DNA of 64,000 bases from Eledone cirrhosa. Its lineage: Eukaryota. A model generated the notes under the pieces. It saw nothing but the letters and a program-made list of their open reading frames with translations. It was not told the origin of the DNA and made no database searches. Made by a program: the position numbers and the translations under genes. The stretch covers positions 46,376,001-46,440,000 of the forward strand of contig OZ024742.1 of NCBI GenBank assembly GCA_964016885.1. The letters are read 5' to 3'. Shown one piece after another: positions 47,554 to 54,700 of the stretch (position 1 is the stretch's first letter; every line of letters starts with the position of its first letter).

Positions 47554-47700
47554 CTATCTATCTATCTATCTATCTATCTATCTATCTATCTATCTATCTA
47601 TCTATCTATCTATCTATCTATCTATCTATTTATCTATCTATCTATCTATCTATCTATCTATCTATCTATCTATCTATCTATCTATCTATCTATCTATCTA
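47554..47700 (+). repeat. (TATC)n, 5' anchor of array 3
   Basis: Direct reading. Confidence 0.97.
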
Positions 47701-47713
47701 TTAATCTAGCTGT

Positions 47714-50700
47714 GTACAACAACAATCTAATAAAAACACAAGGGCCTAACTTCACCCAGGCAGGGGATTTCCCCCACCTCAAAATGATTAAGGCCCCACA
47801 GGACACCTATAAAACTTTAAAAAACAATTTTAAAGAGGACGTGGGTCCCCCCTGCGTCGGGCCCATTAACCGCGTCCTCCTAAAAAACTATCCCACCCCC
47901 TCCCCAAACACCCTCACAACTCCAAGCTCCCCAACCACACAACACACTGATGCCCCCACACTTCCACAAACCACCACCCCACCCAACAACCCATCCCCCA
48001 CCCTAATGGAAATTGTGCAGCCCGATACCCGGGACGCAGAGAGGTAAGTGCCTTTTCTCTTCACCACCAACATGGCTATGCTAAGAGTAGGCTGTTTAAA
48101 TGCGCGTGGCCTGGGCTCAACTTGGAAGCAAGCAATGCTTCTAAATGACCTCAGGTCACAACGTATAGATGTGATGGTTATTTGCGAGGCCCGGATCAGC
48201 AACGTGCGACAGCTGGCCCCCACCTTTGATGACTTTGAGATGCACGCATCTCTCTGTCAGCCCGGAGGTGGGGGTGGAGTTGTCGTTCTGCTGCAAAAAC
48301 ATCTGGGTCTCGCAACACAGATGGTACATTTGGACCCGGAGGGTCGACTAGTGGTTCTGGACCTTGGCAGTGGTAAAGGCGGAGCGTTTAGGTTGGTAGC
48401 CGCCTACGGCCCTTTCGGGTCAATGCGGCCGGACTTCTTCCATCGTCTGGAGACTTTTCTAGGGACGTCCCGCTCCTTGCTATTAGTGGGGGACTGGAAT
48501 GGTATCCTAGATGCACGCTGGGACTACGTAGGGGCCTGCCCCGATAGAGAGGGGTGTAATAGCCTCAAAGGGTTAATCGGTCGATTTGACCTGGCCGATA
48601 GATATCGACTAGATTTTCCGACTGCGCCAACCTGGACTTGGGCAAATCGTAGCGGATCATCTAGGTCGTACCTAGATAGGTTCTTAGTTAGAATTAAGGA
48701 TAAGGACTTTTTAAGTTGTCCAAAAATGCGCATTGTTGGCTATTCAGACCACAAATTAGTGACCTGCATGGTCAACCTTGACAGAACTCATAGACAGGGC
48801 CCCGGTTACTGGAAGCTCAACTTGTCCTTGCCGGCAAGTAGAGCCTACAGGAACCGGATTAGTACGTTAGTTAAGGAACGGTTGACTGGAGCGATCGTCA
48901 ACAGCAGGTGGTGGGTATCTCTAAAGAGAGAGATTAGAGTAGTCTCGATAGAATTTAGTAAGGTTCTAGCTGCGGATAGGAATAGGAAGGAAAGGGAGCT
49001 AATAGATAGAGTAGAAGAGGCAATTAGAAGCGGCGACGTGGCCAGAGTGCTAGCGTCGAGAACGGCTTTGAGCCAGTTTTTCGACGCGAAGCACGAAGGC
49101 TGCGTTGTCCGAAGTAAAATACGTGCTCTAGGGAACGAGGGGACCAAAGCTGTTAGCTGGGCCCGCGTGACAGAGGCCAACAGTGGAACTAAATCCACCA
49201 TCCGGTCTTTGCGAGACCTGGATGGACGGGCGATTCTTGAGCCTAAGCAGATGTGTGAGGCCTTTCAAAGGCACTTTGCCCGACTGTTCGGGAGGGGCGG
49301 GGAGCCGGTTGGGAACGTGGACTTCGGTCCATACCTCGACGGCCTGCCGCGCCTCTCGGACAGGGAGGCGAAGTCCTGCGAGGAGCCGATTTCGGCCGCT
49401 GAGATAGAGGACGTGCTGAGCCAATGCGGCAAACGCAAATCCCCGGGTCTCGATGGTCTTCCTTACGAATTATATCTAGCTATGCCGGACTTGTTCCCCG
49501 ATCTCCTCGAGGCGGTCTACTGCAACTGGCAACAGAACGGGAGAATTCCCTGTACTGTGACCAAGGGCGTAGTCACGCTAGTGAGGAAGGACGAGAACAA
49601 GGGGGACGAAATAAGTAACTTCAGGCCCATAACACTGCTAAATACAGAGTTACAGATTTTGGCCAAGGTGCTAGCAAAGAGGTTGGCGCTTGTCGTGGGC
49701 AACCTGGTGGGAGATACGCAGACATGCGCTATCCCGTCCAGGTCCATCCATGACAACCTCCACCTCATGCGATACATCATAGAGAGGGTTGGGAACGAAC
49801 CCGGCTTTGGTGGGGCTCTGATCAACTTGGATCAATCTAAGGCGTTCGATAGGGTCGACCATGGTTACCTGGATGCGGTGCTAGCGGCGGCAGGCTTCGG
49901 ACCCGTTTTCAGGGGCTGGATCACTGCTATGCACAGCAGCCGCATCTGCTCTAGGGTCAAGGTGAACGGCTACCTCTCGGAGCCGTTCAAAATCGCGCGG
50001 TCCATCCGACAAGGGTGCCCTCTCTCCTCCCTTCTGTATGTGTTGACTCTCGAGCCACTACTGCGGAAGTTGGAGTTGTTGCAGGGCATCCCTTTGGAAC
50101 CGGGATTGCGGAAAGCGGTGTCGGCCTACGCCGATGACGTGACAGTAATGGTGTCGACGGCCTCCGAAATCGAGGCGGTCGGCACCTTACTGGAGGAGTA
50201 CGAAAAGTTCACAGGGGCTAAGCTGAACCGGGACAAGTCGATCGGTTTGCAACTCGGCACGTGGAGGGGCAGACCGATGCCCTCCGATAGCGTCGTCGGA
50301 CGCTGGACGGAGGGCCCGGTGAAGTTGCTCGGGGTCTGGTTCGGACCGGACCTCCAGGTGGAGAAAAACTGGGCGGAGGTTACGAACAGGGTGTTTGCAC
50401 TGACCCAGAAGTGGGCCAGTTGCAAACTATCCCTGAAAGGTCGGGCGGAGGTGGCGAACACCTACATAGCGTCCGTCATCTACTACCGCCTGACCGTAGT
50501 GCCCTGCCCAAGGGAAACCCTCACCAAGATGGAGCGCGCGCTCTTCCAATTCCTTTGGAAGAGGCGGGCTCCTATGGTGAGGAGATCCATCTGCTGTCAA
50601 CACCCTTCGAAAGGAGGGCTGGGGATGCCGTGGCTAATGATGCGTAAACACGCATTAAGGCTACGGCACCTCTACGTATTCCTCACCGGACAACCGGTGT

Positions 50701-51757: not shown

Positions 51758-51768
51758 TATCTATCTAT

Positions 51769-54700
51769 TAATCTAGCTGTCGTCTGTTCTACAGCGTAGA
51801 TGTAATTCACTTCGCGCAGAAGTTTTGTTCAAATTTATTGCGGAAATTTTGTAAGTTCAATTTTAATTTTGATACTATTGTGTAGCTTGACCCCCCGTCT
51901 GAACTGTCAGGCGGTGGGTCAGCTCATCTTCGCCCCTCCCAGGGGTAAAAAACCTGTTTTAAAAAATTTTGTGACATAAAATTTCAATCGTCTGACAGAA
52001 ATGTTAAACGAAGCTAACGAAAATAGTGGTGGGGGGACAGCGGTAAGAGTTGTAAGCTCGCACGCTTTAGTCCCCCCTTCCTTCCCAACTAACGTCATAG
52101 AGAAGGAAAGAAAAAATAAAATAAAAACAGACGAATGTGCGGAGAAAAATGACGAAAACACAAATCTGGACATTGATTCCAACAACAAAAAAAAATTTGA
52201 AAAATTGCATGACAATATTATTACCACAAACAAAGACACAACAAACACAAAAATAACATTTGAAAACAACATCATAACAGAAAGCAAAGCAGGCGACAAA
52301 GTCAACACCAATAATATTTCATTTGCACAAACAACAAAGAAATCTTTGACATATATACCTGAAAATATTTCAGATGTGGCACAAAAAATTGAAAACACCA
52401 AACAATACATAACTCAAGGGGAAAATGGTATTTTATCGGTAAAAATGCCTCAAGAACTCACCAAAGACATTGAAAGTCAGACGGTCGTTTTCCGCACCAT
52501 CAACAACATTTCTAAAAAACCTCAACAACCAACACAAACAGAAATCAAAGCAGTACTTACAGAAGTACTTAATGAAACCACTTTCATAAGAAGAGACAGA
52601 CTGTATGGAAGCCTAGCGATTATTATGAAGAACGAATCGGCGGCAAAAAAATGTGCTTTGTCGCCGATTCGTTCGACAAATTTTACCTTTTATCCATCTT
52701 ATATGGGTAAAAGAACTCAGCGCATATGGCTGGATGCGATGATGCCAGATGTGGACTACTGCTGGCTCATAGCTGGCTTCATCGATCCAGCGAATGACAA
52801 CGTGATTTCCATTGGGAAAACCACAGGAAATGCGTTCAGTGGAACAGGTATAGAGCTGGTAGTGCAAATGAAGCCTGAACGCATCGCCCAAATACCCGAC
52901 AGAATCCTATTAGAGGACCACGGGTATATAAACATTAGCGTGGAGGGGAGAAGGCCGTCCTGCCATATCTGTGCAGGCAGAGGGCACCTGAAGGCGGCTT
53001 GTCCCCAACTCAACAAGAAGAAAACCCTGCTACCAACACCAGCTCCACCACCACCACAACACAAACAGTCACAACACATTACCCCAAAACAAAACACAGT
53101 CCCACCCAACCCCTCACTCAATAAAACAACACAACCACCGCAGCCACAACACACAACACAGTCTAACATAGTGACATCCATCTCCCCCACAAAGAAAACC
53201 AACACGGAAACATTACCAGCAAACATACCTCTTCGCTCCAACACTGAAGATAACCCAACGAATTCGGAGGAAGAAACGGAGTCCTTCAGACAGATTAAAA
53301 GGAAAAAAAGAAAACATGTGCAAAACACACAAGGCCAAACAACCCCTACCCAAATGTCAACACAATCCAACAAAACACAAAACACTCCTCCTGCAACAAA
53401 CAAAACCAAACCTGCCCCTCCCCTCTTCGAAACACTCACACCATCCGAAAAAAAGACATTACACTATACTTACATCAACAGAAACAATAATAAATTAAAT
53501 GAACTCATAAACAATAACCCTTCGGTACAAACCGAAGGTGTAAACTTTGTTTCTTCAGAAAACTACCCACATTTAAAATTAATAAAGATCCCAATGAACC
53601 TCTACCAAAAACTAAAAAAGGATTTTAAGGAGGACGTAGGACCACCCTCTGTCAAACCCATAAACCGCGTCCTACTAAAAAGATTTCCCTCTCCCCTTCC
53701 CCTCCCCAACACAACTCCAAACACCCCAACCCCACCACACACTGACGACCCCACACCACCACAAGACACCCCTTCACCCAACATCCCCGACCCCATGGAA
53801 GTCGTGCGACCCGAACCCCGGGAAGCAGAAAGGTAGGTCTCAACACTCTCCTTTGGCTTTGCCGCCCACATGGATGTGTTAAGAGTAGGATGTTTGAATG
53901 CACGTGGCCTGGGCTCAACTTGGAAGCAAGCAAAGCTTCTAAATGACCTCAGGTCACGTGGTATAAATGTAATGGTTATCTGTGAGACTCGGATCAGCGT
54001 CGTGCGGCAGCTGGCCCCTACCTTCGCGATGACTTTGAGGTGCATGCATCTCTCTGTCAACCTGGAGGTGGGGGAGGGGTTGTCGTTCTGCTGGAAAAAC
54101 ACCTGGGTTTCGCCGTACAGGTTGTTCACTCTGACCCGGAGGGCCGTTTGTTGGTGCTAGACATTGGCAGTAGTGAAGGTGCGGCCTTGAGACTGGGCGT
54201 CGTCTACTCCCCTTTCGGAGCTGAACGACCCGACTTCTTCCAGCGTCTGGAGACTTTTCTGGGAACGTCGCGTTCCCTGCTTCTAGCGGGGGATTGGAAT
54301 GACATCCTTGATGCACGTTGGGACTATGCAGGAGCATGTCCTAATAGAGGGGGGTGTAACAGCCTCAAGGGGTTACTCGACCGTTTTAACTTGGTCGATA
54401 GATATCGACTAAATTTTCCAACTGTGCCAACCTGGACTTGGACTAACCATTGTGGTCAATCTAGATCGTACTTAGATAGATTCTTAGTTAGAAGTAAGGA
54501 CATATTAAGCTGTCCAGAAATTCTCACGGTTGGCTATACGGATCACAAATTAGTGACCTGCGTAGTCAATCTCGAGAAAACACATAAACAGGGTCCCGGT
54601 TACTGGAAACTTAATTTGCCTTTACCGGCAAAAGAGACTTACAGAAACCGGATTAGCAGACTAGTTAAGGAGAGGTTGACGGGTGCAATCGTCAACAACC

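Follow-up and report, generated by a model that had tools for sequence, protein, structure and literature searches.

A window of 64,000 nucleotides from Eledone cirrhosa (assembly GCA_964016885.1, contig OZ024742.1, positions 46,376,001 to 46,440,000 of the forward strand) holds a cluster of related copies of retrotransposons without long terminal repeats (non-LTR retrotransposons), all on the plus strand and arranged head to tail. One of these copies, here called H, very probably inserted by target-primed reverse transcription into a (TATC)n microsatellite just upstream of an older element, D2, leaving the direct repeat at its two edges as a target-site duplication. Retrotransposition of H has direct support in the flanking repeat, an intact 3' end, a microhomologous truncation, the enzyme domains that H encodes and the decay of D2. 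The copy labels (c1 to c11, D1, D2 and H) are our own, coordinates are counted from the first letter of the window, and the features at and around the junctions are as follows.

47474 to 47701, plus strand: (TATC)n microsatellite, the pre-existing target (TRF, 57.2 copies with 88% matches; array census)
47691 to 47713, plus strand: left copy of the 23-nt repeat, 11 nt of TATC and 12 nt from the D2 tip
47711 to 47713, plus strand: TGT microhomology between the repeat and the 5' end of H (H and c4 align from position 8379 of c4, and c4 reads differently upstream)
47711 to 51757, plus strand: copy H, a 5'-truncated non-LTR retrotransposon with the end of open reading frame (ORF) 1, ORF2 and the 3' untranslated region (UTR)
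48072 to 51493, plus strand: H ORF2, with APE endonuclease, reverse transcriptase and zf-RVT domains (Pfam) and one 16-nt deletion near 51168
51745 to 51757, plus strand: 3' terminus of H, AATAAAAGAAA-TA, the normal family end with no poly(A) (comparison of 3' ends)
51758 to 51780, plus strand: right copy of the 23-nt repeat, continuing into D2 (exact match)
51769 to 57517, plus strand: D2, a full-length older element of subfamily D, with a CCHC knuckle in ORF1 and three frameshifts and two stops in ORF2
12566 to 12577, plus strand: 5' tip of D1, the comparator that places AATCTAGCTGT in subfamily D (sequence comparison)
8365 to 8400, plus strand: position in c4 equivalent to the truncation point of H (alignment)

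The 23-mer TATCTATCTATTAATCTAGCTGT stands at 47691-47713 and again, as an exact match, at 51758-51780, as a first-pass annotation of the window had reported. It is composed of 11 nt of pure TATC followed by 12 nt of non-repeat sequence, and those 12 nt are the 5' tip of the downstream neighbour, D2. A search of the window found exact matches to TTAATCTAGC only at 47701 and 51768; allowing one mismatch added a single match, at 20229, where 4.25 were expected by chance, and the count alone is of little weight. The diagnostic part of the repeat is the 9 nt TAATCTAGC, which is neither TATC repeat nor H-type sequence, and whose probability of arising by chance at one given site is 4.9e-6, rising to about 5e-4 once 10 junctions and 10 registers are roughly allowed for. 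That TAATCTAGC might be internal sequence of H-type elements was considered and rejected, c4 not carrying it there. The annotation had recognized the 5' end of subfamily D in the 3' half of the repeat, and the three occurrences of AATCTAGCTGT in the window, at 12567 (where it opens D1), 47703 and 51770, agree. Moreover, the left copy of the repeat carries D2's form of the junction (TAT-TAATC) rather than that of D1 (TATC-AAATC), as expected if the duplication was local, and no other copy in the window begins with the TAATCTAGCTGT found at the left junction of H.

In target-primed reverse transcription, the duplication runs from the 3' end of the element, where the first (bottom-strand) nick is made, to the 5' junction, where the second is made. 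The repeat described here opens at the 3' end of H (51758, 2 nt past the common GAAA) and closes at the 5' junction (47713), where it overlaps H by 3 nt. The body of H aligns from 47711 to c4 from 8379 with 98.9% identity over 190 nt, and at the truncation point c4 reads ...TTAAACAT-TGTGTAC, making TGT a 3-nt microhomology, as had been claimed. Such 5' truncation with microhomology is usual in L1-type insertion. The duplicated bases derive from the target: 9 nt belong to the tip of D2 and differ from the homologous position in c4, while the left 11 nt are unassignable.

Before H arrived, the site would have read (TATC)n-TAT-D2, that is, with the junction (TATC)n-TAT-TAATCTAGCTGTCG. An APE endonuclease would have nicked the bottom strand within the last TATC units, and the freed 3'-OH would have primed cDNA synthesis from the 3' end of the element, probably aided by pairing of a UAUC tail. 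The top strand would have been cut 9-12 nt inside the tip of D2, the incomplete cDNA joined through TGT, and the stretch between the two nicks duplicated by fill-in. Repeated insertion of this kind into one microsatellite would build the head-to-tail cluster. The geometry proposed in the annotation, with H in TATC upstream of D2 and the nicks in TATC and downstream of it, thus holds.

The length of the duplication is less closely bounded than the 20-23 bp that had been claimed. Its right edge is fixed; its left edge is not, since the tail of the element is itself TATC, as all 10 mapped element 3' ends continue into TATC (a 3'-end motif search gave 11 matches, of which that at 34492 is no element end). 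Some of the left 11 nt may have come from a UAUC tail on the RNA, and the range that the sequence strictly allows is therefore at least 9 and at most 23 bp; 20-23 bp is most likely, and requires that no repeat unit was contributed by the RNA. The spacers between copies (n = 8) vary: 11 nt of TATC between H and D2, 22-23 nt between c3 and c4, 16-18 nt between c1 and c2, about 5 nt between c10 and c11, and an uninformative 72-126 nt in the other four. A fixed stagger of 20-23 is plausible on this evidence; the c1-c2 and c10-c11 spacers do not fit it. One further candidate was considered.

6682 to 6704, plus strand: candidate second duplication between c3 and c4, (TATC)5 TAA, matching 3351-3373

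Measured from the GAAA landmark, the longest flanking repeat at c3-c4 is 23 nt, of which 22 are pure repeat, and it is consistent with a second duplication at most. It was rejected as proof of one, the last A being encoded by the element, and long flanking matches of pure TATC were likewise rejected as a measure of length. Downstream, c10 is followed by TTTATC(T) and then by a truncated c1-type copy, c11, with a 64-bp tandem duplication (63802-64000), whose 3' end lies outside the window; the c10-c11 spacer is too short to leave room for a 20-23 bp duplication.

Two kinds of evidence order the insertions. Against the intact reading frame of c6, the ORF2 of H has one lesion in 3,422 nt (the 16-nt deletion) and that of D2 has five in 3,431 nt. 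Positions matching neither c4 nor c6 number 15/4046 in H, and differences between D2 and D1 number 221/5528, a comparison that is not like for like and favours H, which has two close comparators where D2 has one. H is taken to be younger than D2, as the annotation had proposed, because D2 is the more decayed and because the duplication of H copied D2's tip. The tip of subfamily D itself resembles decayed TATC, with 24/40 positions in phase (51758-51797), and is also similar to the decayed left edge of the array before H (47474-47552); the 5' end of subfamily D may be a captured old target flank.

H is a mosaic, of c4 type to 48788 and c6 type from 48800, with a brief c4-type stretch at 51418-51545; no one copy in the window matches it over its full length, and the mosaic switch leaves its reading frame unbroken. 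This pattern suggests either that sequence passes between subfamilies, through template switching or conversion, or that the master of H was already chimeric. Its ORF2 matches the Pfam families PF03372 (E 3.8e-08), PF00078 (E 5.3e-26) and, under its cut-off, PF13966 (E 3.5e-05), and contains the motifs GDWN, YLDR, SDH, QGCPLS and YADD and a CCHC-type finger.

The duplication places the landing of H in TATC; that TATC is a real target, as had been claimed, is better shown by the other copies in the cluster, which, besides H and D2, are these.

887 to 1300, plus strand: c1
1317 to 3302, plus strand: c2
3373 to 6681, plus strand: c3
6702 to 12441, plus strand: c4
12566 to 18182, plus strand: D1
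27549 to 33338, plus strand: c6
57604 to 58584, plus strand: c9
58677 to 63803, plus strand: c10
About 63808 to the window end, plus strand: c11

TATC stands before each of the 11 mapped copies, in the case of c11 as a single unit only. In a census of arrays, every plus-strand TATC array of at least 16 bp (11/11) touches an end of one of the 11 copies, and none of the 32 other arrays, which include the one reverse-strand TATC array, does so. Six 5'-truncated copies (c1, c2, c3, H, c9 and c11) are preceded by TATC, which cannot have come with their RNA; four of the six follow the tail of another copy. Within this one window, the share of mapped copies flanked by TATC exceeds the threshold for a target preference, which asks that over 20% of flanks be alike in type (PMC4494074). 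The array left of H is near-perfect from 47553 and appears old because its left edge is decayed. Selection of TATC by the endonuclease and selection by pairing of the RNA tail are both candidate explanations for the preference.

The 3' ends bear on the priming step. The two bases that follow GAAA at the 10 mapped 3' ends are CA in four (c1, c3, c4 and c6), TT in three, TC in two and TA in one (H). Every 3' end (1300, 3302, 6681, 12441, 18182, 33338, 51757, 57517, 58584 and 63803) has AATAAA a few bases ahead of it, and poly(A) is present in none. Because AATAAA occurs without poly(A) and the bases after GAAA vary, these ends suggest priming inside a UAUC tail.

Three other histories could produce a repeat of this kind. 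In the first, a break just inside the tip of D2 took an H-type copy as its template, entering it at TGT, copying through its 3' end as far as TATC and re-annealing to the TATC before D2. The TGT microhomology, a weak and gapped likeness of c4's CTGTTAAAC to the target's CTATTAATC just upstream, and the mosaic nature of H, which implies that copies do exchange sequence, are all compatible with such templated repair. However, no copy in the window could have served as a template for H throughout, microhomologous truncation is common in L1-type insertion, and the total length of the repeat falls within the size range of duplications made by long interspersed elements (LINEs); the spacer between H and D2 is, moreover, 11 nt of TATC, as against 72-126 nt in 4/8 inter-copy spacers. 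We consider templated repair very unlikely. A template switch, in which the reverse transcriptase left H RNA at UGU for the 5' tip of a D-type RNA and the 12 nt were RNA-derived, is less likely again. In its favour, AATCTAGCTGT is a generic D tip, and the spacer of about 5 nt between c10 and c11 does resemble a jump or a target deletion more than a duplication; in a variant, a jump from D2 RNA to H RNA would make H and D2 a single event. Such switching requires either a coincidental D neighbour or two jumps, whereas the left repeat copy carries D2's junction form and not D1's, and decay has clearly gone further in D2 than in H.

Mis-assembly of a repeat-rich cluster is the least probable of the three. 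The very high copy number of the family (21,596 contigs of run X3 fell on the H region), the mosaic structure of H and the want of read coverage at the junction give it some ground, but a mis-join would have had to create the D2-specific 9-mer exactly at the truncation of H and retain the 3-nt microhomology, and the reading frame of H continues unbroken through the mosaic switch.

Besides the unfixed left edge, the ill-fitting spacers and the unequal divergence comparison, several points limit the case for insertion of H by target-primed reverse transcription as set out above. Reads were placed on 47681-52000 from 4 of the 11 runs listed; no displayed joint, loose end or piece spans either junction, and 47681-47712 was skipped as repeat, so that the reads speak neither for nor against the junction. 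As just two D tips are known, the form attributed to D2 rests on n = 2. At its terminus H has GAAA-TA, in contrast to the GAAA-CA of four relatives (c1, c3, c4 and c6). The census omitted a diverged copy (42.1-45.5 kb) and its associated fragment, both of which touch (ATT)n rather than TATC, and the window is one cluster and not a random sample of the genome. Finally, 23 bp slightly exceeds the 10-20 bp usually given for the duplications of APE LINEs, in which the second cut is little sequence-specific (PMC6895275). Separately, a further loose end, in one contig of run X6, has TATC-like sequence ahead of position 51364, a single unverified case.

The elements of the cluster belong to a recognizable kind. 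Their ORF2 carries APE, reverse transcriptase and zf-RVT domains (Pfam), with the C-terminal zinc finger and no RNase H, as in the L1 group, and the closest solved structure is human L1 ORF2p (E 2.7e-45), R2 proteins following at 7e-19 and weaker. A Pfam scan of ORF1 found nothing; a CCHC knuckle of the form CX2CX4HX4C is present in ORF1 of D2, c4 and c6, and matches in the Atlas to zf-CCHC (0.91) and to a ZCCHC3 RNA-binding cluster (0.89) are leads only. Members of the Tx1 clade have two ORFs, the first with RNA-binding domains and a CCHC knuckle, and the same layout is found here. We therefore regard the elements as L1-group and Tx1-like, an assignment drawn from structure and targeting rather than reverse transcriptase phylogeny. 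No Tx1-named relative appeared among the matches listed or in 25 cluster look-ups; two of the 120 matches listed name a species, Argonauta hians at 69% identity and Acanthosepion pharaonis at 52%, pointing to an octopod host. Related loci sought in viral contigs (three candidates) and in prokaryote genomes (18 candidates) yielded none that was confirmed, and a 20-nt pattern for further D tips returned two metagenome loci, both chance matches with no BLAST match to the window. The c6 ORF2 (29637-33074) is uninterrupted over 1,145 aa; its endonuclease reads GYWN for the GDWN of H and CKA for CEA, on account of which c6 may be nuclease-dead.

Related elements lie beside other repeats. At 41919-42104 lies part of the 3' UTR of a related element, whose alignments to four 3' UTRs each score above all 300 shuffles; this fragment sits after (TTC)56(TTA)10 and before the diverged copy (region 41889-42118), and is flanked by a 12-nt repeat, ATTATTATTAAT, 2 nt of which are non-repeat. 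It possibly represents a sister lineage with (ATT)n as its target, arranged as H is with D2. The diverged copy (42116-45907) has about 74% nucleotide identity in ORF2 and a remnant of ORF1; its ORF2 match starts near residue 305, no endonuclease part was found in it, and its end segment (45542-45907) is inverted. A separate and distant element bearing a reverse transcriptase, at 37666-40220 on the minus strand (RVT_1, E 2.2e-15, Pfam), shares 26% identity with the cluster family and adjoins (ATT)32 and (TTG)n arrays.

The footprint of H is an ordinary duplication made by a textbook mechanism and rendered visible by lucky position. Duplications within a microsatellite are normally invisible, and only its extension beyond TATC into D2 brings that of H to light; reaching unique sequence, it sets a rare limit on how far apart the nicks of a microsatellite-targeting LINE fall, and the junction of H and D2 orders two insertions. 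The family is high-copy, and seems recently active and confined to TATC repeats. If it is so confined, it would partly explain the clustering of LINEs with GATA/TATC microsatellites in cephalopod genomes, would be relevant to microsatellite markers and to assembly, and would add a new target to the Tx1 list for studies of endonuclease specificity. A bolder and rather doubtful proposal is that these elements form an undescribed cephalopod Tx1-like lineage, strictly specific for (TATC)n, with a fixed stagger of 22-23 nt and multi-subfamily head-to-tail arrays whose order can be read from their junctions, and that in a sister lineage within the window the target has shifted to (ATT)n and the duplication is shorter. 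Were this true, the (TATC)n and (ATT)n sister lineages would be a natural pair for mapping the change of microsatellite target in an APE endonuclease.

Within the open-licence literature searched, a (TATC)n target was not found for Tx1 or in cephalopods. The L1-Tx1 elements of coleoids are expanded (PMC8967140), and in Octopus vulgaris they comprise 80 families overall (PMC13282606 supplement), of which 13 are recently active, with 421 insertions; the word "target" is absent from the main text of that study (PMC13282606). The elements of our cluster are probably of the same kind as these families, to which they are likened by description and not by sequence. Further papers bear on the comparison (PMC1919474, PMC4640811, PMC1950540, PMC3747384, PMC1635306).

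Mammalian L1 shares with the cluster elements the ORF2 order of APE, reverse transcriptase and zinc finger, and supplies their best solved-structure match; it also shows 5' truncation, microhomology and a duplication edge blurred by a target-like tail. It differs in its poly(A) tail and its preference for TTTT/AA, where the elements described here have a TATC tail and target and a CCHC knuckle in ORF1. Tx1L of Xenopus laevis is likewise a target-specific APE element, but its target is the Tx1D transposon rather than (TATC)n, and its endonuclease hairpin has an RDGH tip in place of (A/S)NRSGSS or NH(C/S)GQS. A duplication of 23 bp is ascribed to Tx1L, a figure not found in the literature searched.

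The nearest parallels are in the Tx1 clade, where Kibi inserts into (TC)n, Koshi into (TTC)n and crocodilian families into (TTCC)n or (TTTC)n (PMC4494074). Like them, the elements described here are APE non-LTR elements lying in a single orientation in a short microsatellite; the target is instead (TATC)n and the host an octopod, and the likeness is one of target type and structure, not phylogeny. In crocodilians, SINEU-3/Tx1-Mar shows sequential insertions at one target, with tandem copies sandwiching the duplication and 5'-truncated copies serving as proof of targeting. Its target is a DNA transposon and its duplication 16 nt (PMC4494074), whereas here the target is a microsatellite common to autonomous copies of several subfamilies, and the duplication of H overlaps the tip of its neighbour. 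Both the mechanism and tandem copies that sandwich a duplication are already known for Tx1-mobilised elements, and the family of H and D2 may be one more member, so far unlisted, of an established kind of element.

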